The notes under the pieces: model-generated | Database searches by the model: none | What the model was told of the DNA's origin: nothing | The model's input: the letters and a program-made list of their open reading frames with translations, nothing else | Shown: positions 1-33,541 of the stretch, piece by piece | Position numbering within the stretch: position 1 is the stretch's first letter | Layout of the letters: every line of letters begins with the position of its first letter | Virus record (IMG/VR): IMGVR_UViG_3300027644_000004 | Coordinates: 28,256-92,255 of that record | Source: a virus | Strand: one strand, 5' to 3' | Length of the DNA stretch: 64,000 bases | Translations under genes and position numbers: made by a program

Positions 1-1
1 C

Positions 2-334
2 AACTCCTGTCACGGCGGATTTGGCCTGAGTCACGAGGCCCGTGTGTTGTATCTGAATCGTTCGCGTGTTGATTACACTGTCGAAGATAGAGAAAGTCGT
101 TTCAGCACCCAACAATTGGGTCCGCATATCTTGGTCGATGGTGAATCGTTTATTGATCGCCAAATTCCCCGTGATGATCCAGTATTGGTGTCAGTGGTGA
201 GCGAGCTGGGCGAAAGATCCTGGGGTAGACACGCAAAATTAAAAATAGTAGAAATTCCTGCCGCAGTCAAGTGGCAAATCGACGAATACGACGGTCGAGA
301 ATGGATTGCTGAAACTCACCGAACATGGAACTAA
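2..334 (+). CDS. conserved phage hypothetical protein, 5'-truncated by window edge
   Basis: Frame is open from nt 2 (NSCHGGFGLSHEARVLY...). The GGFGLS and 'RDDPxLV..V.ELG...LKIVEIP..V.W.I.EYDG.EW..E.HRTW' pattern is typical of a common phage family. Confidence 0.75.
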   Translation, partial: NSCHGGFGLSHEARVLYLNRSRVDYTVEDRESRFSTQQLGPHILVDGESFIDRQIPRDDPVLVSVVSELGERSWGRHAKLKIVEIPAAVKWQIDEYDGREWIAETHRTWN

Positions 335-353
335 AACGGATAAATATTACACT

Positions 354-1940
354 ATGTTTCTAAGTTTAATTACATTAGCAGTGGCCTTGAGCCTGTCGGT
401 CATTGCGGCCTGGTATTCAATTGCAGGTCTTGCGGCCATATTTGCCGCCGCTGTGGTGCCTATTATGATAATGGGCGGCATACTGGAACTGGCCAAAGTA
501 GTGGTCACACTGTGGTTGCACGAACATTGGTCACGCTGTCGTTGGCTAATGAAGTGTTACCTGGTGCCGGCAGTGTTTATGCTGATGGTTATTACTTCCA
601 TGGGTATCTTTGGATTTCTTTCAAAAGCACACATGGACCAGGATATGGTCACAGGCGATGTGCAGGCCAAGATTGCCATTTACGATGAAAAGATACGAGT
701 TGAAAAGGAAAACATAGATGTTAATCGCAAAGCACTCAAACAGATGGATGAGGCAGTGGATCAAGTTATGGGTCGCAGTCAGGACGAAAAGGGCGCAGAA
801 AAAGCCGTTACCATTCGAAGAGCCCAGCAGAAAGAACGTGCTCGCCTCCTTGCGGACATTGCAGAAGCTCAAAAGAAAATCACAGCACTCAATGAACAAC
901 GTGCGCCAATTGCCGCTGAAGTACGCAAAGTAGAAGCCGAAGTCGGTCCGATCAAATACATAGCCGCATTGATATATGATGACAGTCTCGACACAAATGT
1001 ACTGGAAAAAGCAGTGCGTTGGGTTATCATTGTGTTGGTCATAGTGTTTGATCCGTTGGCCATTATGATGTTGCTGGCCGCCACTGAAAGCCTAAGGTGG
1101 AACAGAGAAAAACAACAGGTTGCTCCGATACCAGTCACTGAAACGCCGGCCGCAGGACCAGAACCTGAGCCAGATGATGGGCCACTTAGTGATCAACAAG
1201 TTGAACAAATTAAAAAATCTGCTGTAGAATTTGGATTGCCCAATGGTGAGTTGAATGACAAGGACAATTTGTTCTTGCAAGCTCATGCAATCGACTGTTT
1301 CAAATGCGGAACCCAATTGGTACTTGCACCGGGCATTGGTCTTTTCTGTCCCAACAAAGAGTGTGACACAACAGACAATGTGCCAGCCGCAGAGACTACA
1401 GCAACAAGCATTGAATCAGCACAAGACACTGATAAACAAGAGATAGAGACAGCATTGCCCACGGGTGAACAAGAATTTGTAGCAGTAGATGATGATGAAC
1501 TAGATGGCATGGATGCAGCAACCAAGGCCGCGGCTCGACGCTGGAAAGATGCAAATCCTTCTCGCACTTTGAAATCCCAGCGAAGACTATACGATACAGG
1601 CCAGATTGATCAATTGCCCTGGATGACTCCAGATTACTACATACAACTGGTACCAGATAATTTGGCAGCACACGAAACTCAATCGGGATTTGGGGCAACT
1701 TTTCCCAAGGATCCAATCAAAGGCGATACTTATGTTCGTACAGATCGTTCGCCAAGTGTGTTGCATAAGTTCAACGGCCACAGCTGGATTGAAGTCAACA
1801 AAGACCTAAATACTCGTTATGCGTACAATGAAGCATATATTGATCATTTGATTGCTCAAATAGATTCCGGTGCGTATGATCCAGAATTGTTGAGCGAGGC
1901 AGAAAGAGATCAAATTGAACGCCGCTTGACTGGAAATTGA
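354..1940 (+). CDS. membrane-anchored coiled-coil protein with Zn-ribbon insert
   Basis: Several N-terminal TM helices, long coiled coil, a further TM (WVIIVLVIVFDPLAIMMLLAA), and CFKC...CPNKEC. Start moved to ATG 354, 7 nt after TAAATA (341-346). Confidence 0.7.
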   Translation: MFLSLITLAVALSLSVIAAWYSIAGLAAIFAAAVVPIMIMGGILELAKVVVTLWLHEHWSRCRWLMKCYLVPAVFMLMVITSMGIFGFLSKAHMDQDMVTGDVQAKIAIYDEKIRVEKENIDVNRKALKQMDEAVDQVMGRSQDEKGAEKAVTIRRAQQKERARLLADIAEAQKKITALNEQRAPIAAEVRKVEAEVGPIKYIAALIYDDSLDTNVLEKAVRWVIIVLVIVFDPLAIMMLLAATESLRWNREKQQVAPIPVTETPAAGPEPEPDDGPLSDQQVEQIKKSAVEFGLPNGELNDKDNLFLQAHAIDCFKCGTQLVLAPGIGLFCPNKECDTTDNVPAAETTATSIESAQDTDKQEIETALPTGEQEFVAVDDDELDGMDAATKAAARRWKDANPSRTLKSQRRLYDTGQIDQLPWMTPDYYIQLVPDNLAAHETQSGFGATFPKDPIKGDTYVRTDRSPSVLHKFNGHSWIEVNKDLNTRYAYNEAYIDHLIAQIDSGAYDPELLSEAERDQIERRLTGN

Positions 1941-1941
1941 T

Positions 1942-3135
1942 ATGACAACTAAGCCAACGCCTACACAATGTAATTTTTGCAACAAGCACAAGGATCAAGT
2001 TTTTAAACTAATTGTCGGGCACAATGTTGGTATCTGCAACGAGTGTGTGGACTTTTGTCATGGCCTGTTGATCAAAGAGCAGCCTAAAAAATCCACTGCA
2101 GATGCCACAGCAGATCCAAGAGAAATGCACCGATATCTAGACCAATACATTGTTGGCCAAGCCGCTGCCAAGATTGTTCTCAGTGTGGCCATTGTGAACC
2201 ACTACAAACGCATTACCAACACTGATGGCGAAATGCAAAAGGCCAATATTTTAATGACCGGTCCCACTGGCACAGGTAAAACTTTAATGGCCCGCACCAT
2301 AGCTCGATACCTGGATGTTCCGTTCGTGATTGCTGATGCAACTACCTTGACCGAAGCCGGGTATGTGGGCGACGATGTTGACAGTGTGATTGCCCGACTG
2401 TACCATGCCAGTGGCAACGATGTGGAACGCACACAACGTGGAATTGTGTTCCTAGACGAAATAGATAAAATTGCTCGTAAAAGCGAAAGTAGTACAGTGA
2501 CTCGAGATGTGTCAGGCGAAGGCGTACAACAAGCTCTGCTCAAACTGATTGAAGGCACAAAATGCAAGGTGCCAAATTCTAACACGAGAAAAACAGCCAG
2601 CAGCAGTGAAACAATTGATATTGACACTGCCAACATCTTGTTCATAGCTGGTGGCGCATTTGTTGGGCTGGATCAAGTGGTTAAAAAACGAACACAAGGA
2701 ACCTCTATTGGTTTTGGTGCCGCGTTCAACAAAGAAAAATTATCCGACGCAGTTACACCTGACGATCTGGTTCGCTATGGTATGATTCCTGAATTTGTTG
2801 GGCGATTTCCGTCGTTTATACAGTTGGAAGAACTGACTAAGAACCAACTGGTGACCATTCTAACCGAAGTAAAGAACAACCTGGTTGAACAATACAAATG
2901 GCTGTTTGAGCAAGACGGAGTAGCCCTGGACTTTGATCATGACAGTTTGGATCTAATTGCCGAACGCACATTTACCACCAAGACCGGCGCTCGTGGCCTA
3001 CACACCGAACTGGAACGAGTGCTACTGCCGCACATGTACAATTTGAAAGATTACCAATCACGCAACGTTTTAAAAATTGCCATTGATAAAACACAAGTTG
3101 TTAATCCTATCAAACTGGCACAACAAAATTCTTAA
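1942..3135 (+). CDS. clpX: ATP-dependent Clp protease ATPase subunit ClpX
   Basis: N-terminal C4 Zn domain (CNFC...ICNEC), Walker A GPTGTGKT, TEAGYVG, Walker B FLDEIDK, RDVSGEGVQQALLK, IGF loop, GARGL. Confidence 0.97.
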   Translation: MTTKPTPTQCNFCNKHKDQVFKLIVGHNVGICNECVDFCHGLLIKEQPKKSTADATADPREMHRYLDQYIVGQAAAKIVLSVAIVNHYKRITNTDGEMQKANILMTGPTGTGKTLMARTIARYLDVPFVIADATTLTEAGYVGDDVDSVIARLYHASGNDVERTQRGIVFLDEIDKIARKSESSTVTRDVSGEGVQQALLKLIEGTKCKVPNSNTRKTASSSETIDIDTANILFIAGGAFVGLDQVVKKRTQGTSIGFGAAFNKEKLSDAVTPDDLVRYGMIPEFVGRFPSFIQLEELTKNQLVTILTEVKNNLVEQYKWLFEQDGVALDFDHDSLDLIAERTFTTKTGARGLHTELERVLLPHMYNLKDYQSRNVLKIAIDKTQVVNPIKLAQQNS

Positions 3136-3138
3136 CAG

Positions 3139-3167
3139 TTGACACAGCGCCCTGCCTGTGTTAAACT
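3139..3167 (+). promoter_or_regulatory. sigma70-type promoter for groES, embedded in an inverted repeat
   Basis: TTGACA-N17-TAAACT; 3137-3147 can pair with 3156-3167. Confidence 0.6.
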
Positions 3168-3195
3168 ATTGTTTAATTCATTACAAGGAAAAACT

Positions 3196-3504
3196 ATGAA
3201 ACTAACTCCCATTCGCGACCGCATTGTTGTGCGTCTTATTGATGTGGAAACTACCACTGCCAGTGGTTTGATTATTCCAGATGCTGCTGCTGAAAAACCC
3301 AGCCAGGGCGATGTGTTGGCAGTGGGCACAGGGAAGATTGCAGAAGACGGCACAGTGGTGCCAATGGCAGTCAAGGTTGGTGATCGTATTTTGTTCAGTA
3401 AAACTGCTGTGCAAACGGTCAAAGTTGACAAGGAAGAATTCAACATGGTGTACGAAAGTGATGTTATGGCAGTTGTAAAAAACCCGTCAGATAACAATGC
3501 TTAA
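3196..3504 (+). CDS. groES: co-chaperonin GroES (host-like)
   Basis: [12 protein letters not shown]...[27 protein letters not shown]...[11 protein letters not shown]; AAGGA SD precedes ATG 3196. Confidence 0.95.
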
Positions 3505-3575
3505 TAAATACGTGTGTGGATGCCGATAGTCGGGTCTACATGGTATAGTCAACTTGCTTAATAAGGAGAAAACAA
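3505..3575 (+). promoter_or_regulatory. late promoter plus two-hairpin structured 5' UTR (ROSE-like thermometer) of hsp20
   Basis: TAAATA 3505-3510. Hairpin TGTGGAT-G-CCGA-TAG-TCGG-GTCTACA 3515-3540. SD-sequestering hairpin CTT-G-CTT-AAT-AAGGAG 3553-3568 contains the ROSE UYGCU motif. Confidence 0.75.
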
Positions 3576-4043
3576 ATGACTAAAACTTTAACACTTCGCA
3601 GTTTCGATATTCCCACACTCAACAAATTTGGTATCGGTTTTGATAACATGTTTGATGAACTCATGCGTGTGAGTGCCCAACAAGGCAGCACCAACTACCC
3701 ACCTTACGATATTGTGCAAATCAACGATGATGAGTACATGATCAGCGTGGCTGTGGCTGGCTTTGGGCATGATAATCTTTCGGTTACCAAGGACAAAAAG
3801 TTCTTGATTATTGAAGGCAAACACAGCCGTGAAAATGTGGAAAATGAAGATAGCAGTGCAAAGTACCTGCACAAAGGTATCAGTGAGCGTAGTTTCCGCA
3901 GAGAATTCCAATTGGCAGATCACGTGGAAATCAGCAACGCACACCTTGAACTTGGCATCTTGAGTATTCACTTAAAACGTGAAATACCCGAGGAAGCCAA
4001 GCCAAAGGCCATTGCTATCACTTACACATCGGACTTGAAATAA
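3576..4043 (+). CDS. ibpA: small heat shock protein Hsp20/IbpA
   Basis: IGFD, NYPPYDI, AVAGF, YLHKGISERSFRREFQLADHVEI..A.L..GILSI.L and a C-terminal IxI motif. Confidence 0.95.
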   Translation: MTKTLTLRSFDIPTLNKFGIGFDNMFDELMRVSAQQGSTNYPPYDIVQINDDEYMISVAVAGFGHDNLSVTKDKKFLIIEGKHSRENVENEDSSAKYLHKGISERSFRREFQLADHVEISNAHLELGILSIHLKREIPEEAKPKAIAITYTSDLK

Positions 4044-4045
4044 TG

Positions 4046-4076
4046 TAAATACAATGGGGGCCAGTGGCTCCCATTT
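4046..4076 (+). promoter_or_regulatory. late promoter and leader hairpin upstream of clpS
   Basis: TAAATA 4046-4051 followed by the hairpin AATGGGGGCC-AGT-GGCTCCCATT. Confidence 0.55.
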
Positions 4077-4091
4077 ACCTAAGGATATAAT

Positions 4092-4403
4092 ATGTCATCA
4101 CAAGATACCAGCACAATAACAAGACCAAAAATAGAATTGAGCGAACCACCGTTGTTTAAAATAATCTATTTGAATGACAACAAAACATCTGTGGATTTTG
4201 TGATTGAGAGTTTGATTACACATTTTGAATACACAGCAGAAACCGCTGTGACCATTACAGAAGATATTCACAACACTGGATCTGCTGTGGTTGCAATCTT
4301 GCCTTATGAAATTGCTGAACAAAAGGGCATAGAGGTAACATTGGATGCTCGCAGTAACAATTATCCCCTGCAGATAAAACTTGAGCCGGAAACAGTAAAT
4401 TAA
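4092..4403 (+). CDS. clpS: N-end rule adaptor ClpS
   Basis: PPLFKIIYLNDNKTSVDFVI..L..F...A..I...IH..GSAVV...YEIAEQK...YPLQIKLE. Confidence 0.92.
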   Translation: MSSQDTSTITRPKIELSEPPLFKIIYLNDNKTSVDFVIESLITHFEYTAETAVTITEDIHNTGSAVVAILPYEIAEQKGIEVTLDARSNNYPLQIKLEPETVN

Positions 4404-5191
4404 AGATCGATCACAATGCGTCGAGGATGATAGGCTGGTATCCATTGGCTGGAATCCTCGACTCTTCCTCGGCAATTGTTCACATATCGAATGCGATCAA
4501 TGTTCTGATCTATTGATCCGTGATAGTGTCCAAAGCACCAGGTTTTAACTTTGTTTTCTGTGTCGGAGTCCAGGACCATCTGCATGAGTGAATTGCCCAT
4601 TACATTGAACTTGTAGGTAGAAGTGATGTCAATATCGTGGTCAACCAATACCGGGGTTGGCACGGTGTGTGTGACCAACACAATGGATTTAACATCAGGA
4701 TGAGTTTGAAGTTTTTTAATACTGTTTCTCAAATACGCAACGTCGTTGTAGGCCATGCTGTGTATGGCTGCTGCCACTGGCTGACCAACATCCATCATGT
4801 CGCAGTACCATAGTCTGCACTGTTCGTCACTGATGCTGGGATCAAAATCAAAAGTCCACCATCCATTGGTGCCAACAAATGCAACACCATCAACAATCAC
4901 ACAGTTGTCTTGTAAAAACACTACATTTTCAATGCCAGCAATGGCTTCTTCCAGTATGTTGTAACTGTCACTGAGTGAATCTAAACTGAATCTATGCTCG
5001 TTGTTGCCGTCTATATAAAATACCGCTCGGTAACACTGTGCCAGATGTTCCAAGGTTTCGCGTACAATTTCAACGTCTACGGAAATATCGCCGGCCACAA
5101 CGCATATTGGGCTAGTGGCCAGGCCGGTCCAATCAAAGGTGTCTTTGGCACCCAAATGTAGGTCTGAAATTAAATCGAATGTAACTTGCAT
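4400..5191 (-). CDS. calcineurin-like metallophosphoesterase
   Basis: SDLH, AGD, GNNEH, THTVP and FGHYH motifs; TAAATA 6 nt upstream of ATG. Confidence 0.88.
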   Translation of the reverse strand: MQVTFDLISDLHLGAKDTFDWTGLATSPICVVAGDISVDVEIVRETLEHLAQCYRAVFYIDGNNEHRFSLDSLSDSYNILEEAIAGIENVVFLQDNCVIVDGVAFVGTNGWWTFDFDPSISDEQCRLWYCDMMDVGQPVAAAIHSMAYNDVAYLRNSIKKLQTHPDVKSIVLVTHTVPTPVLVDHDIDITSTYKFNVMGNSLMQMVLDSDTENKVKTWCFGHYHGSIDQNIDRIRYVNNCRGRVEDSSQWIPAYHPRRIVIDL

Positions 5192-13843: not shown

Positions 13844-15613
13844 TTATATAACTTGTGCGGCTCGACGAGCTTGTGTGTTTGCCCGTGCCTGTTCAAGTGC
13901 AGTTAATATTTCTGGTGTGTCAACCCGGCGACTATTGTTGGCAGGCGTTGGCTTGCTGTTTTGTGCGGCTCGACGAGCTTGTGTGTTTGCCCGTGCCTGT
14001 TCAAGTGCATCTGCATCTGATATTTTTGGTATTTCTATTACATTGAGTAAACTATCACTGTTGTTCTGTATTGGGCTGCTGGGCAGATCAAGATGACGAT
14101 CCTGTTCTATCTCTTGCATCATTCGATTGTAGCTTGGGCTGCCGGGCAGCTTTATAGTATGCGTGACTACAAAACTTTCCACAGCAAACTCTGGCAGATC
14201 AAGATGACGATCCTGTTCTATCTCTTGCATCATTCGATCGTAACCATCACCGTGTGGCATGGGTTGCCATGTGGGATCTGGCTCAGCAGTACCATTTAAA
14301 AATGACTGTATAAAGTTGTTAATTGGGCCCAGCATGGCCTTGGGATTAGCAATCCGATGATAGTTGTGCTCTAACACCGAGTGTGCTTGATCGTACAGAT
14401 CTTGAGGGCTGAGATGATTTATCAGTTTAACCAACTGCTCAAACGCCTGTGTCCAGCGTTTTACGTTGTCGGGTTCTTCGTCGTAGCTTTCGTCTATCCA
14501 CGGGGAAAATGTTTTGAACCCAATATTTCTAAGTTCCCGCAGACTGTGCTGTGGACCAAATGTAACAAAAATTCGTCGTCCAAACAGTACCTTGGCAGTT
14601 TTTTCTGTAAAAAAATTACACTTGGTAGAATTAGTTTCGGCTACAACGCTGAACCAAGAATTTTGATATACACCGTGCGGTATAAAAAAACTTCCATACG
14701 GTGGCACGCCCAGCACAGTTTTTCCGTTGCCAACAGGAAAATGTTCAATTCCTAGGCTATGGGTGGAATGTGCAACCCAACCACCATGTCGGCTGTGTTC
14801 TCTTAGTACGACCATTTCTGGAGTGTCGTAACGATCCAATTCAGGAGTTCGATAATATACATTCTCGTATGATTCGGGCATGGCCGATGAAACATAAGTC
14901 TGAGCACTGATGCTGACTAATCCGTGTTCCAACAACTGATTTCGACGCAGTAGGTCAAACAACAATTTTCTGTGTCCTTTGGCGCCACCTAACAGTGCTT
15001 CAAACTTGTATGGACGATCCTGACCGGGATCGTATTTTACAGGAGTATTGCTTGCTACAGTCCAGGCACCCCAGGAGTTTAGCGGAACACTCAATGCATT
15101 GTAAGGAAACAGGTTGCTGTCGATATCATCTCCGGTCCCGGCCAAAATAGATATTACTCGTCCTGGGCTAGTTTTAAAATACCCATCGGGATCGTTTAAA
15201 AAATCAATCCATTCTGATCCATACGCCATTTCTTCTTGTATGCAGATTATTAGATCGGCCCAGCTGTAATCAATTCCTGGCCCTGGTCTAGGATAATACT
15301 GATCGGCCGGTAACTTGCAGACTTGCTGACCTGTGTGTTTTCTCAAGTGATAGTGCGGCTGAAATTGATCCAGTATGATTATTTTTTTCCGGTCGCTGTT
15401 TTTAAAAAACTCAACATGTTCCCATTTGGTAAATCTCATCACTGTATTGGGATCTGCTGACGTCAGTGTCACGTGCATTGTATTCCATGGCCGATCACAG
15501 TGTGTGATATCTGGTAAGAATTTTAATCCTGCATTTTTTCCAATGGCACAGGTAACATCAAAAAATTTTGGATTCTGTAATCCAAATGCTCGTTGTGGGG
15601 TAAAGATAATCAT
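13844..15613 (-). CDS. glycosyltransferase-like protein (GT10-like motif) with repetitive C-terminal tail
   Basis: FSVVAET...FTEKTAK.L..RIF..FG...LR.IGFKTFS.WIDESYD; start reassigned to ATG 15613, 4 nt after TATAAATA. Confidence 0.6.
   Translation of the reverse strand: MIIFTPQRAFGLQNPKFFDVTCAIGKNAGLKFLPDITHCDRPWNTMHVTLTSADPNTVMRFTKWEHVEFFKNSDRKKIIILDQFQPHYHLRKHTGQQVCKLPADQYYPRPGPGIDYSWADLIICIQEEMAYGSEWIDFLNDPDGYFKTSPGRVISILAGTGDDIDSNLFPYNALSVPLNSWGAWTVASNTPVKYDPGQDRPYKFEALLGGAKGHRKLLFDLLRRNQLLEHGLVSISAQTYVSSAMPESYENVYYRTPELDRYDTPEMVVLREHSRHGGWVAHSTHSLGIEHFPVGNGKTVLGVPPYGSFFIPHGVYQNSWFSVVAETNSTKCNFFTEKTAKVLFGRRIFVTFGPQHSLRELRNIGFKTFSPWIDESYDEEPDNVKRWTQAFEQLVKLINHLSPQDLYDQAHSVLEHNYHRIANPKAMLGPINNFIQSFLNGTAEPDPTWQPMPHGDGYDRMMQEIEQDRHLDLPEFAVESFVVTHTIKLPGSPSYNRMMQEIEQDRHLDLPSSPIQNNSDSLLNVIEIPKISDADALEQARANTQARRAAQNSKPTPANNSRRVDTPEILTALEQARANTQARRAAQVI
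13853..14238. repeat. two pairs of perfect in-frame direct repeats (A-A-B-B)
   Basis: 49 bp at 13853-13901 and 13961-14009; 46 bp at 14082-14127 and 14193-14238. Confidence 0.9.
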
Positions 15614-15671
15614 GGTATATTTATAGTGACAGCTCACTACAAATAATATCAAACGATGTTGCGCCGCAGCA

Positions 15672-15749
15672 TAAATAATGTTACAATAAGACACTGGGTG
15701 CTGAATAGGTCGGGCCCAGTATCAGACTTGCTTAATTAAGGAGAAACAC
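15672..15749 (+). promoter_or_regulatory. late promoter plus two-hairpin structured 5' UTR homologous to the hsp20 leader
   Basis: TAAATA 15672-15677; ACTGGGT-G-CTGA-ATAGG-TCGG-GCCCAGT 15693-15720; CTT-G-CTT-AATT-AAGGAG 15727-15743. Confidence 0.75.
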
Positions 15750-16028
15750 ATGTATACAGCAGACGCAATCATCGACACCGTTCAAACCGGTAAAAAAACT
15801 TTTGTCAACACTTTCGTTACTAACAAAACAGCCCGCGACGCCATGATTGAATTCATTGACGCCCAAGCTGACTATACCAAAAAAGCTGCCAAAGTTGGTC
15901 AAGACACTGTCACTACATTGCTTAGTGAAGGTGTCAAGGCTTACCAAAATGCCACTAAATTTGACTACACCAAATTTGGCGAAGGCATCATGAAAGCCTA
16001 CACAGCCCAAAACTTCACCAAAAAGTAA
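15750..16028 (+). CDS. phasin-like small helical protein
   Basis: 92 aa, amphipathic and all-helical, with 'FIDAQADYTKKAAK' resembling the phasin core; strong SD. Confidence 0.5.
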   Translation: MYTADAIIDTVQTGKKTFVNTFVTNKTARDAMIEFIDAQADYTKKAAKVGQDTVTTLLSEGVKAYQNATKFDYTKFGEGIMKAYTAQNFTKK

Positions 16029-16047: not shown

Positions 16048-16074
16048 AAAAACCCTGCCCAGTGCAGGGTTTTT
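16048..16074 (+). terminator. intrinsic terminator (bidirectional-type)
   Basis: AAAAACCCTGC-CCAGT-GCAGGGTTTTT. Confidence 0.85.
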
Positions 16075-16075
16075 C

Positions 16076-16104
16076 TTGACTAAATTTTCCCAAACTGCTA
16101 CAAT
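16076..16104 (+). promoter_or_regulatory. sigma70 promoter
   Basis: TTGACT-N17-TACAAT. Confidence 0.75.

Positions 16105-33463: not shown

Positions 33464-33541
<78 letters not shown>

Follow-up and report, generated by a model that had tools for sequence, protein, structure and literature searches.

Two unrelated genes in the 64,000-nucleotide stretch of viral DNA that we analysed (the window), which comes from a giant lake-water phage, carry the same two-hairpin RNA leader: hsp20, encoding an IbpA-like small heat-shock protein, and the gene for a 92-amino-acid helical protein. The structure is conserved among related phages and accompanies the same pair of genes there. We regard it as probable that both leaders are copies of one conserved cis-acting element, a divergent phage form of the ROSE-like switch of the Pseudomonas ibpA type.

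A two-hairpin leader ahead of two genes

The preliminary description, made from the letters of the DNA, had reported one leader architecture on both genes, and direct reading located both leaders as claimed, at 3514–3575 for hsp20 and at 15693–15749 for the 92-residue open reading frame (ORF), each on the plus strand. In the hsp20 leader, hairpin 1 (3514–3541, the outer stem closing on a U·G pair) consists of TGTGGAT (3515–3521), a bulged G (3522) and CCGA (3523–3526), then the loop TAG, TCGG (3530–3533) and GTCTACA (3534–3540), the inner stem being CCGA/UCGG with the loop UAG. Hairpin 2 (3553–3568) pairs an anti-Shine–Dalgarno (anti-SD) strand CUU[G]CUU (3553–3559; CTT 3553–3555, G 3556, CTT 3557–3559) across the loop AAT with the SD AAGGAG (3563–3568), and the ATG follows at 3576. 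Hairpin 1 of the 92-residue ORF leader (15693–15720) is built from ACTGGGT (15693–15699), a bulged G (15700), CTGA, the loop ATAGG, TCGG and GCCCAGT, which ends at 15720; hairpin 2 (15727–15743) has CTT-G-CTT (15727–15733), the loop AATT and the SD AAGGAG (15738–15743), with the start codon ATG at 15750. Both leaders thus end in an SD-containing hairpin directly upstream of the gene, which places them in the predicted 5′UTR.

The two leaders share a 20-nucleotide core, ACTTGCTTAAT(T)AAGGAGAAA, that has no further occurrence in the 92-kb record. R1, a covariance model built from the leaders of relatives, scored 67.0 and 66.3 bits at the two window sites (E about 1e-15), and the runner-up in the window reached 17.8 bits, so that R1 picks exactly these two copies. 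Scanning phage genomes with the model, as the preliminary description had proposed, gave the same picture in relatives: each of four near-complete related jumbo phages has exactly two strong copies, always ahead of hsp20 and the 92-residue ORF, and the pairing is kept even in a lineage whose Hsp20 is only 53% identical. The shared leader is therefore confirmed as a real observation. The suggestion that it forms a regulon coupling Hsp20 to a granule-type protein stands as far as the gene pairing goes, which is kept in every near-complete relative examined; co-regulation of the two genes is what this pairing suggests.

The leader is not confined to these genes or to this group. Some relatives also carry it ahead of dnaK (L052) or of a 14-codon ORF (L028, L031 and L032), and a leader of this design stands ahead of hsp20 in cyanophages (all 55 distinct leaders examined), in Sinorhizobium phage Phosso and in Pelagibacter phage HTVC115P. 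DNA similarity searches of deposited phages gave no match, and the matches from a scan of cellular genomes were three contigs of Bacteroidota MAGs that resemble binned phage DNA. Two apparent phage examples, 'Campylobacter phage A11a' and 'Pseudomonas phage Y7', were treated as bacterial-type ibpA loci, since these records bear an 'unverified' mark and their leaders are of the enterobacterial ROSE_2 and Pseudomonas ROSE_3 types.

Comparison between phages bore out the compensatory changes that had been proposed for the outer stem of hairpin 1. The 57 distinct variants of this hairpin keep pairing while their stems covary freely, with double-sided changes in 7 of 10 pairs, around a near-invariant core, Y[G]C...GG with its bulged G. 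On a plain MAFFT alignment, RNAalifold recovered just the three inner pairs of hairpin 1, so that we fixed the structure in advance and controlled for chance with slid partners and shuffles. With the structure imposed on a plain MAFFT alignment of 50 copies, 88.5% of cells pair, compared with 35–65% for slid partners; nine pairs show double changes, and the observed covariation was matched by 0 of 500 shuffles. Among 84 copies aligned by fitting to the model, pairing holds in 94.7% of cells. Single-sequence folding was unexceptional for both leaders (z-scores of −0.8 and −1.1), so that what supports them is the comparison of phages with one another and not the folding energy. The hsp20-type and ORF-type leaders remain distinct from each other across genomes, which indicates long separate maintenance and not recent copying.

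Relation to ROSE elements and other RNA thermometers

ROSE elements are textbook bacterial heat-shock switches. ROSE-like elements are generally defined as 5′UTRs of two to four hairpins, the last of which holds the SD (PMC11182007, PMC3669281), and their defining motif is a U(U/C)GCU that faces the SD and has a bulged G (PMC11342760, PMC3669281). In the phage leaders, CU(U/C)GCUU stands opposite an A(A)GGAG SD, with the bulged G left over, in almost every one of some 80 distinct copies, and the predicted geometry is that of ROSE: the bulged G lies in the anti-SD strand between a U·G or C-G pair and a C-G pair. This is the local geometry seen in the crystal structure of a U(U/C)GCU/SD helix, with its U·G wobble, bulged G and C-G pair (PMC11342760). 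The exceptions are few: L122 and L123 have CUACU without the bulged G, the outermost pair of hairpin 2 is an A/G mismatch in L053, and in L010 the SD is mutated (AAGAAG) and the anti-SD and its pairing are retained. Where the SD is GGAA (L091, L108 and L118), hairpin 2 shows a compensatory change from C-G to U-A, and in L097 and L105 it is shifted in register with the bulged G retained. Covariation in hairpin 2 is otherwise thin, at one or two pairs, because the SD side is not free to vary.

The ROSE-like assignment of the preliminary description holds in this motif and in a comparison with the Rfam ROSE models. ROSE_3 (RF02523) was the sole Rfam family to align full length (positions 1–69 of 69) to both leaders, at 31.9 bits (E 2.5e-5) and 27.7 bits (E 2.6e-4) for the window copies and 29.6–34.4 bits for relatives, all below its gathering threshold of 43. 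An Rfam scan at gathering thresholds found a tRNA only in the window, and no match in 20 relatives. A genuine P. aeruginosa-type leader reached 69.2 bits with ROSE_3 but no more than 20.8 with the phage model, and E. coli ibpA matched the phage model in hairpin 2 alone, at a non-significant 8.8 bits. Because all tested copies fall below the ROSE_3 gathering threshold, we class the leaders, by sequence and predicted structure, as a divergent phage variant of the known ROSE switch and not as routine members.

The closest known system is the Pseudomonas ibpA ROSE_3 thermometer, which is of the short two-hairpin type (Krajewski et al. 2013, PMC3669281). Shared features are the two hairpins, a leader of about 60 nucleotides, an IbpA-type gene and a stable 5′ hairpin with the core GAUGCCGA...UCGGGUC, its U·G pair and its bulged G (hsp20 hairpin 1 corresponds to ROSE_3 positions 1–27), together with a second hairpin in which U(U/C)GCU pairs with the SD around a bulged G. 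In both phage and ROSE_3 hairpin 1 cores, one inner pair alternates between G-C and C-G. Our calculations across copies also give a stable hairpin 1 (median −10.4 kcal/mol at 37 °C) and a labile hairpin 2, a contrast likewise reported for Pseudomonas (PMC3669281). Unlike Pseudomonas ROSE_3, the leaders are phage-encoded and score 28–34 bits against the threshold of 43, they have late-type and/or sigma70-type promoters in place of sigma32, and one copy serves a gene that is not a heat-shock gene. Hairpin 2 of the phage leaders has only six base pairs, and at 37 °C the ROSE_3 consensus hairpin exceeds it in stability by about 7 kcal/mol. G-C pairs flank the motif/SD core on both sides in the Pseudomonas element (Krajewski et al. 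2013), whereas the phage leaders keep the lower C-G and close the upper side with U-A pairs.

ROSE-like thermometers outside heat-shock genes are known from ABC transporter genes (PMC11342760) and as ROSE-G (PMC12857270). Those elements are bacterial and serve a single gene each, whereas the two copies per phage genome link genes for a chaperone and a small helical protein. Three phage RNA thermometers have been counted, on lambda cIII, on SPbeta blyA and on a sigma70 gene of a gut phage; the latter two were found by motif search and are of the fourU type, and no phage ROSE-type element is listed (PMC11182007). They have in common with the leaders described here that they are phage-encoded and that translation control operates, or would operate, through mRNA structure. 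Our literature search found no paper describing a ROSE-like leader in phages or linking phage hsp20 to a thermometer.

Transcription and proposed masking of the ribosome-binding site

In the mechanism that we favour, a late-type ATAAATA, a sigma70-type promoter or both would direct transcription, which would begin with hairpin 1 or shortly before it. An ATAAATA resembling the core of T4-type late promoters lies just upstream of the hsp20 leader, at 3507–3513 on the plus strand, after the GroES stop codon (3502–3504). Twelve of the 15 occurrences of this heptamer in the genome lie on the sense strand within 60 nucleotides upstream of a gene start and none is antisense; its position is also kept in cyanophage hsp20 leaders. 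This enrichment and the cyanophage comparison make a T4-type late promoter plausible. The TAAATA promoter of the preliminary description is present upstream of both genes, but upstream of the 92-residue gene it is not conserved in many relatives. Sigma70-type −35 and −10 elements are also conserved in relatives, whose hsp20 has TTGACA-N17-TATAAA/T upstream; no such promoter was detected ahead of the window hsp20 leader. Both promoter types may be used.

The control region of the 92-residue gene (15656–15687, plus strand) contains a palindrome, ATGTTGC-N3-GCAGCAT (15656–15672), overlying the −35 element TTGCGC (15659–15664), followed by ATAAATA (15671–15677) and the −10 element TACAAT (15682–15687). 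The palindrome and the sigma70-type elements are conserved in many relatives. Read as a PhaR site, the palindrome fits 15 of 17 positions of the published motif; we did not adopt this reading, because the degenerate motif occurs in the window at chance frequency (22 matches versus 15.6 expected). An intrinsic terminator at 16050–16076 on the plus strand (CCCTGC/GCAGGG stem, then a T run) closes the 92-residue gene as a single-gene unit; the promoter that follows it, TTGACT-N17-TACAAT, begins at 16076.

RNA-library contigs from four studies cover hsp20 and the 92-residue gene with upstream ends at 3524 and 15698, both within hairpin 1, although such contigs prove neither transcript ends nor the absence of DNA carry-over. 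Parts of the examined stretch had little or no RNA-contig cover, to which we gave no evidential weight. Hairpin 1 might instead be a terminator or processing site of the upstream gene (GroES in the window) and no part of the hsp20 leader, given that it starts 10 nucleotides past the GroES stop codon with no sigma70-type promoter detected between them. Yet no U-run follows hairpin 1, the same hairpin stands ahead of the 92-residue gene, whose upstream gene is on the opposite strand, a dedicated promoter precedes the hairpin in relatives, and an RNA-library contig runs from 3524 through hsp20 and clpS; we consider this reading very improbable.

In the favoured mechanism, a cis-acting ROSE-like switch, hairpin 1 would act as a stable 5′ stem-loop with the conserved U·G, bulged G and C-G at its core, most likely shielding the mRNA and scaffolding the fold. 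CU(U/C)GCUU would pair with the AAGGAG SD downstream, leaving the bulged G. The anti-SD helix alone is marginal, at a median of −0.3 kcal/mol at 37 °C and −2.6 at 15 °C across copies, compared with −7.8 kcal/mol for hairpin II of the ROSE_3 consensus; the isolated hsp20 helix has −1.9 kcal/mol at 4 °C and +1.8 at 37 °C. The objection that hairpin 2 is too weak to act was dropped once the linker was seen to be able to form an outer helix with the start-codon region. In this tentatively assigned, probable third helix, the linker strand UAGUCA (3546–3551, plus strand) pairs with UGACUA (3577–3582), and with it the masking module (3545–3586) reaches −10.0, −7.6 and −4.7 kcal/mol at 15, 25 and 37 °C, respectively. 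By these predictions the helix probably compensates for the weak hairpin 2 and would clamp the SD helix. In relatives the outer helix is GUCAU/AUGAC, and the window subtype shifts the register with a synonymous change from ACA to ACU. The helix is invariant in hsp20 leaders, so that covariation cannot test it there, and it is found in only about 60% of the 92-residue ORF leaders.

The folded module would block ribosome entry and the opened module would admit the ribosome, opening most likely through warming in the lake-water range. In line with a mechanism of SD masking, folding predictions leave the SD less often unpaired in the leaders (median unpaired probability 0.35) than in 50 control genes of the same genome (0.51–0.59), in a comparison of 78 leaders that are related to one another, which inflates the P value. 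Predicted SD accessibility is nearly flat between 10 and 37 °C (0.35 to 0.37), and thermosensing is not evident in silico. Since the same element stands on hsp20 and on the phasin-like gene, joint production of the two proteins would follow.

The leader could also be a constitutive expression cassette without a switch, in which hairpin 1 stabilises the 5′ end of the mRNA ahead of a strong ribosome-binding site and which came to be shared through duplication. Such an effect of 5′-terminal stem-loops is known and has been discussed for hairpin I (PMC3669281), the leader is modular enough to precede dnaK and the 14-codon ORF, and the anti-SD helix is weak. A cassette, however, gives no reason for CU(U/C)GCUU, the bulged G and the U·G/C-G alternation in about 80 copies and in distant phages; it leaves unexplained the compensatory changes from C-G to U-A and the linker complementary to the start codon, and it sits poorly with the lasting distinction between the hsp20-type and ORF-type leaders. 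We judge it improbable.

Hsp20, the 92-residue protein and their possible joint control

Control by the ROSE-like switch is possibly tightened by its own product, with the phage IbpA-like Hsp20 binding the leader and being titrated off by aggregating proteins. E. coli IbpA represses its own mRNA via 5′UTR stem-loops, a 'safety catch' on a leaky thermometer to which the upstream stem-loops contribute (Miwa et al., bioRxiv 10.1101/2020.04.20.050740), and its mRNA binding needs R93 (irreplaceable), basic residues at positions 97 and 98 and the aromatic Y34 (Cheng et al. 2023, PMC10474464). The phage protein (155 amino acids; 3576–4043, plus strand; Pfam HSP20, E 7e-16) scores 122 bits on the NCBIfam IbpA model, under its cut-off of 212. 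It retains Y34 (Y41 in the phage), R93 (R105), R97 (R109) and the IXI motif; in IbpB neither R93 nor R97 is present, position 93 being Q. The phage thus resembles the gamma-proteobacterial self-repression system in having an IbpA-type protein with these equivalents behind a ROSE-type leader. In E. coli, ibpB and rpoH have been proposed as further targets; the set proposed for the phage would include a second, unrelated gene.

A stronger version makes the leader mainly an operator for Hsp20, whose free oligomers would bind the bulged-G helices of hairpin 1 and of the SD and repress translation of both genes until aggregating proteins in the infected cell titrate Hsp20 and free both mRNAs, temperature being secondary. 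Operator and thermometer can coexist, as in E. coli, and we hold the operator role possible, at less than even confidence. E. coli IbpA self-repression and the retained residue set argue for it, as does the near-invariant hairpin 1 core amid a covarying stem, which a plain stability hairpin would not need; the weakness of the anti-SD helix alone and the flat predicted thermal response point the same way. Against it, the position of K98 is Glu in the phage protein (R-R-E versus E-R-K, with Arg at position 96), and a second leader-bearing Hsp20 lineage has K-Q-T, that is, Q and T at positions 97 and 98. The arginine at position 93 is also conserved in human small heat-shock proteins (PMC10474464) and so discriminates weakly, and the same hairpin 1 core occurs in the Pseudomonas ROSE_3 consensus, for which a protein role is not established. 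The preliminary description had offered a protein-binding site as an alternative role for the repeated U-G(bulge)-C element; that proposal is strengthened by the near-invariant core together with an Hsp20 that keeps IbpA RNA-binding residues.

The 92-residue protein (15750–16028, plus strand) belongs to a viral family that is only remotely phasin-like. The earlier label 'phasin-like' is upheld in relatives, 9 of 40 diverse family members matching Phasin_2 (PF09361) weakly (best E 1.2e-4; the only recurring family), and in the nearest named language-model neighbours, which are leads from PHA-granule families, all below 0.9 (Phasin_2 0.87, PHB_acc 0.85 and PHA_synth_III_E 0.82); it is not upheld by the window protein, which matches no Pfam, PHROG or NCBIfam profile. 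The protein has three predicted helices (pLDDT 76). Foldseek of the model against the PDB returned nothing at E ≤ 0.001, a profile search of PDB sequences gave no credible match, a search of deposited phages gave none, and a profile search for the family among longer proteins, itself weak evidence, found none. Published work has placed IbpA on PHA granules in a phasin-like role.

In phages the ROSE-like leader emerges as a regular accompaniment of hsp20, occurring in lake jumbo phages, in marine cyanophages, in a Pelagibacter phage and in a Sinorhizobium phage, and standard Rfam annotation overlooks all these copies. One group of lake jumbo phages has recruited the leader to a second, non-chaperone gene, which offers a lead on why phages make IbpA-like and phasin-like proteins together. 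The leaders also provide a large set of natural variants, from cold and temperate waters, for the tuning of a minimal ROSE helix, and a concrete test case for whether IbpA-type proteins read the bulged-G motif. We think it rather unlikely that the phage Hsp20, as a putative trans repressor of the bulged-G helices in hairpin 1 and at the SD, commands a phage-owned regulon that would release Hsp20 and a phasin-like coat protein, and in some phages DnaK, on aggregation. If it does, hairpin I would have to be seen as a protein-binding site instead of a passive scaffold in every short ROSE element, including those of bacteria.

Two paired leaders with covarying hairpins

The structured RNA leaders upstream of hsp20 (3514–3575) and of a 92-amino-acid ORF (15693–15749) are very likely real, conserved and related to ROSE elements. 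All bases listed for them in the preliminary description were confirmed in the window, and a 20-nt core common to both is found nowhere else in the 92-kb record. R1, a covariance model trained on 50 non-redundant leaders from relatives, scored the two sites at 67.0 and 66.3 bits, with the next match at 17.8 bits. Four near-complete related genomes each contained exactly two strong R1 matches, spaced 12–19 kb apart, and the downstream ORFs read in these four were always hsp20 for one match and the 92-aa ORF for the other. The pairing is also kept in a lineage in which Hsp20 is only 53% identical. Across genomes, hsp20-type and ORF-type leaders are consistently distinct in their loops (UAG or UGG versus AUAGG) and stems, indicating that both copies are ancient and have been kept apart, and are not recent duplicates.

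Imposing the two-hairpin structure on a plain MAFFT alignment gave pairing in 88.5% of cells, compared with 35–65% when the 3′ partners were slid; double-sided changes occurred at nine pairs, and no shuffle reached the observed covariation. After model fitting, pairing was seen in 94.7% of cells across 84 copies. Model-free parsing of the raw leaders yielded 57 distinct variants of hairpin 1, with outer stems including TGTAG/CTACA, GTGGA/TCCAC, ATCGGG/CCCGAT, ATAGGA/TCCTAT, CAAGA/TCTTG and GTTGG/CCAAC, inner stems including CCGA/TCGG, CCCA/TGGG, CTGG/CCGG, CTGC/GCGG and CCATG/CATGG, and a near-invariant core Y-[G]-C ... G-G (a U·G or C–G pair, a bulged G and a C–G pair). Hairpin 1 is predicted to be stable throughout, with a median of −10.4 kcal/mol at 37 °C and −7.3 kcal/mol at 50 °C. 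Hairpin 2, which pairs an anti-Shine–Dalgarno (SD) strand with the SD, reads CU(U/C)[G]CUU, A/U loop, A(A)GGAG in nearly all copies; three leaders (L091, L108 and L118) have GGAA as SD with the closing C–G pair replaced by U–A, and two others (L097 and L105) have a shifted register with the bulged G still kept.

Relationship to Pseudomonas ROSE_3 and distribution among phages

The proposed ROSE-like character was borne out by comparison with Rfam, in which ROSE_3 (RF02523, the Pseudomonas ibpA thermometer) was the only family to match both leaders at a relaxed threshold. It aligned across all 69 model positions with 31.9 bits (E = 2.5e-5) and 27.7 bits (E = 2.6e-4), both below its gathering score of 43 bits, and none of the relatives passed that threshold either (29.6–34.4 bits). 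A true ibpA leader of the P. aeruginosa type, present in an unverified 'phage' record, scored 69.2 bits on ROSE_3 and only 20.8 on R1; the phage and P. aeruginosa-type leaders are related yet distinct groups. Two 'UNVERIFIED' phage records, L148 (OQ572409.1) and L150 (MG065691.1), carry ibpA leaders of bacterial type that exceed Rfam thresholds (ROSE_3, 69 bits; ROSE_2, 100 bits) and probably contain host or contaminant DNA.

In the published Pseudomonas element (PMC3669281), the first of two hairpins (hairpin I) is rich in G+C, does not melt and has one inner pair alternating between G–C and C–G; a U(U/C)GCU faces the SD, and the AUG is unpaired. The phage leaders match it closely but lack the upper G–C clamp, have a much weaker hairpin II and a probable AUG-masking helix, and differ in their promoters and the genes they serve. 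The ROSE_3 hairpin I consensus (GAUGCCGA...UCGGGUC) already holds the U·G, bulged-G and C–G core, so the entire short-ROSE family has the element noted earlier as repeated in both hairpins. Rfam freshwater-2 RNA (RF02980) gave a weak partial match of 19.6 bits confined to the ribosome-binding region (3551–3578); the hsp20 site has exactly the 3′ consensus of that motif, AAGGAGAAAAcAAAUG, suggesting that this RNA may derive from related phages.

Beyond the lake phages, R1 gave matches in front of the hsp20 genes of three cultured phages: the cyanophage S-SSM4 (30.4 bits), the Sinorhizobium jumbo phage Phosso (22 bits) and the Pelagibacter phage HTVC115P (18 bits). Both bulged-G hairpins were recognized by eye in each of them. 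Among T4-like cyanophage hsp20 genes, all 55 distinct leaders fetched from the viral collection share a design of TAAATA, then GGUU[G]CC-UUCG-GGGACC, whose outer stem covaries, and then CUC[G]CUU-loop-A(A)GGAG. Only one convincing copy each was present in S-SSM4, in Phosso and in three near-complete IMG/VR genomes of cyanophage type; the second copy, on the 92-aa gene, is thus specific to the lake jumbo-phage group. The deposited S-SSM4 hsp20 CDS (HQ316583.1; L152:407-455) starts 48 nt past an in-frame ATG, and is probably annotated too short, as the upstream ATG carries an AAGGAG site and a ROSE-like leader. Matches in cellular genomes were limited to metagenome-assembled (MAG) contigs (L141–L147, including a Haliscomenobacter sp. 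MAG, G005, and a Sediminibacterium sp. MAG). One MAG holds four copies on three contigs, including an hsp20 and 92-aa pair 13 kb apart. These contigs look like binned phage contigs and are at best a weak hint to the host. A search of the searchable literature for a ROSE-type element in a phage found no description of one.

Gene neighbourhoods and promoters

The window is the final 64 kb of a 92-kb IMG/VR viral fragment of 27% estimated completeness, and its relatives are jumbo phages of 320–365 kb from lake water. A tRNA gene lies at 33464–33538 (Rfam tRNA, 57.7 bits). The hsp20 gene (3576–4043) sits within a series of proteostasis genes, following a ClpX-like ATPase (1942–3135) and GroES and preceding ClpS (4092–4403). 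GroES starts at ATG 3197, with an AAGGAA ribosome-binding site, and ends at 3504; the TTG at 3139 listed as its start in a mechanical ORF list was rejected, as 3139–3167 is its own promoter, TTGACA-N17-TAAACT. The clpX–hsp20 interval differs among relatives (seen at positions 1–3460 of both L031 and L052): the window (1942–4403) holds groES alone there, L052 has dnaK preceded by an extra full leader, and L028, L031 and L032 have an extra leader on a 14-codon ORF, followed by groES–groEL under a separate promoter. The 92-aa ORF (15750–16028) forms a unit by itself, with a separate promoter region, a leader and, at 16050–16076, an intrinsic terminator.

The preliminary description placed both leaders after a TAAATA promoter. 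In the 92-kb record, 12 of the 15 occurrences of ATAAATA lie within 60 nt upstream of a gene in the sense orientation, mostly 10–30 nt from the ATG, and none is antisense; all four occurrences of TATAAATA precede gene starts. T4-like cyanophage leaders have TAAATA equally far from hairpin 1. These ties make it plausible that ATAAATA behaves like a T4-type late promoter. Relatives have sigma70-type elements: TTGACA-N17-TATAAA or TATAAT before hsp20, and a −35/−10 pair, often beneath a palindrome, before the 92-aa gene. The window hsp20 copy abuts the GroES stop codon and has no recognizable −35 upstream, with ATAAATA kept at 3507–3513. With either promoter type, the transcript would begin at hairpin 1 or no more than a few bases from it. 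A large divergent minus-strand gene (13844–15613) begins, in the stretch 15613–15630, at an ATG only a few bases past TATAAATA and thus has almost no leader, in contrast to the 60-nt structured leaders.

A palindrome over the −35 of the 92-aa gene, ATGTTGC-N3-GCAGCAT (15656–15672), is conserved in many relatives and matches 15 of the 17 positions of the published PhaR motif, YTKNTGCRNYGCANMAR; that agreement alone proves nothing, because the degenerate motif has 22 matches in the window against 15.6 expected, no excess over chance. In four freshwater metatranscriptome runs from four studies, contigs were identical to the window over hsp20 (for example, 3524–4568) and the 92-aa ORF (15698–16018 and 15768–16005), with upstream ends at 3524 and 15698, inside hairpin 1. 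Such contigs do not prove transcript ends and may reflect DNA carry-over, and hence hint only weakly at natural transcription of the two genes starting near the predicted sites.

Masking of the start site and candidate signals

A third helix is probable in hsp20 leaders. In essentially all of them, GUCAU within the non-coding linker is complementary to AUGAC, made up of the start codon and the next two bases. A different pairing, UAGUCA facing UGACUA, occurs in the window and its closest relatives, in a register that relies on a synonymous change of codon 2 from ACA to ACU. Linkers of the 92-aa ORF family most often have GUAAA facing UUUAC (codons 2–3), and in the window, where codon 2 is UAU, GUAU faces AUAC with both sides changed. 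The helix is only tentative for this gene, as the window version would run into the foot of hairpin 1 and a 5-bp helix is missing from about 40% of ORF leaders. The third helix bears on the energetics: the anti-SD helix by itself is marginal, with medians of −2.6 and −0.3 kcal/mol at 15 and 37 °C (hairpin II of the ROSE_3 consensus has −7.8 at 37 °C). The whole masking module of the window hsp20 leader has −10.0, −7.6 and −4.7 kcal/mol at 15, 25 and 37 °C, and common leader types behave much the same.

The leader thus described probably masks the SD, and probably also the AUG, and opens on a signal. By analogy, warming would be the default signal. The stability range of the masking module suits lake temperatures, but predicted SD accessibility is almost unchanged between 10 and 37 °C. 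Binding of Hsp20, perhaps acting jointly with temperature, is a possible though rather unlikely signal; residue conservation and the invariant bulged-G core of hairpin 1 speak for it. The window Hsp20 is IbpA-like (NCBIfam IbpA, 122 bits, under the equivalog cut-off). Aligned to the IbpA and IbpB sequences of an annotated E. coli K-12 record, it keeps Y34, R93, R97 and the C-terminal IXI motif, with Glu at position 98 and Arg at position 96 in IbpA numbering; IbpB lacks R93 and R97. The residues kept are those needed for IbpA to bind its own 5′ UTR and repress translation (PMC10474464), a self-repression that has been called a 'safety catch' on a leaky thermometer and for which upstream stem-loops matter as well (bioRxiv 10.1101/2020.04.20.050740).

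The 92-aa protein has no match in Pfam, PHROG or NCBIfam. It is predicted to fold into three helices, its family comprises about 400 clusters (50% identity), and its closest protein-atlas clusters are recorded as viral. Its earlier 'phasin-like' label is reasonable but unproven: Pfam Phasin_2 matched weakly in 9 of 40 diverse family members, other families recurring at most twice, and the nearest named language-model neighbours were three PHA-granule families, all under the 0.9 level. As IbpA has been located on PHA granules in a phasin-like role (PMC10646324), co-production of Hsp20 and the 92-aa protein would be biologically coherent.
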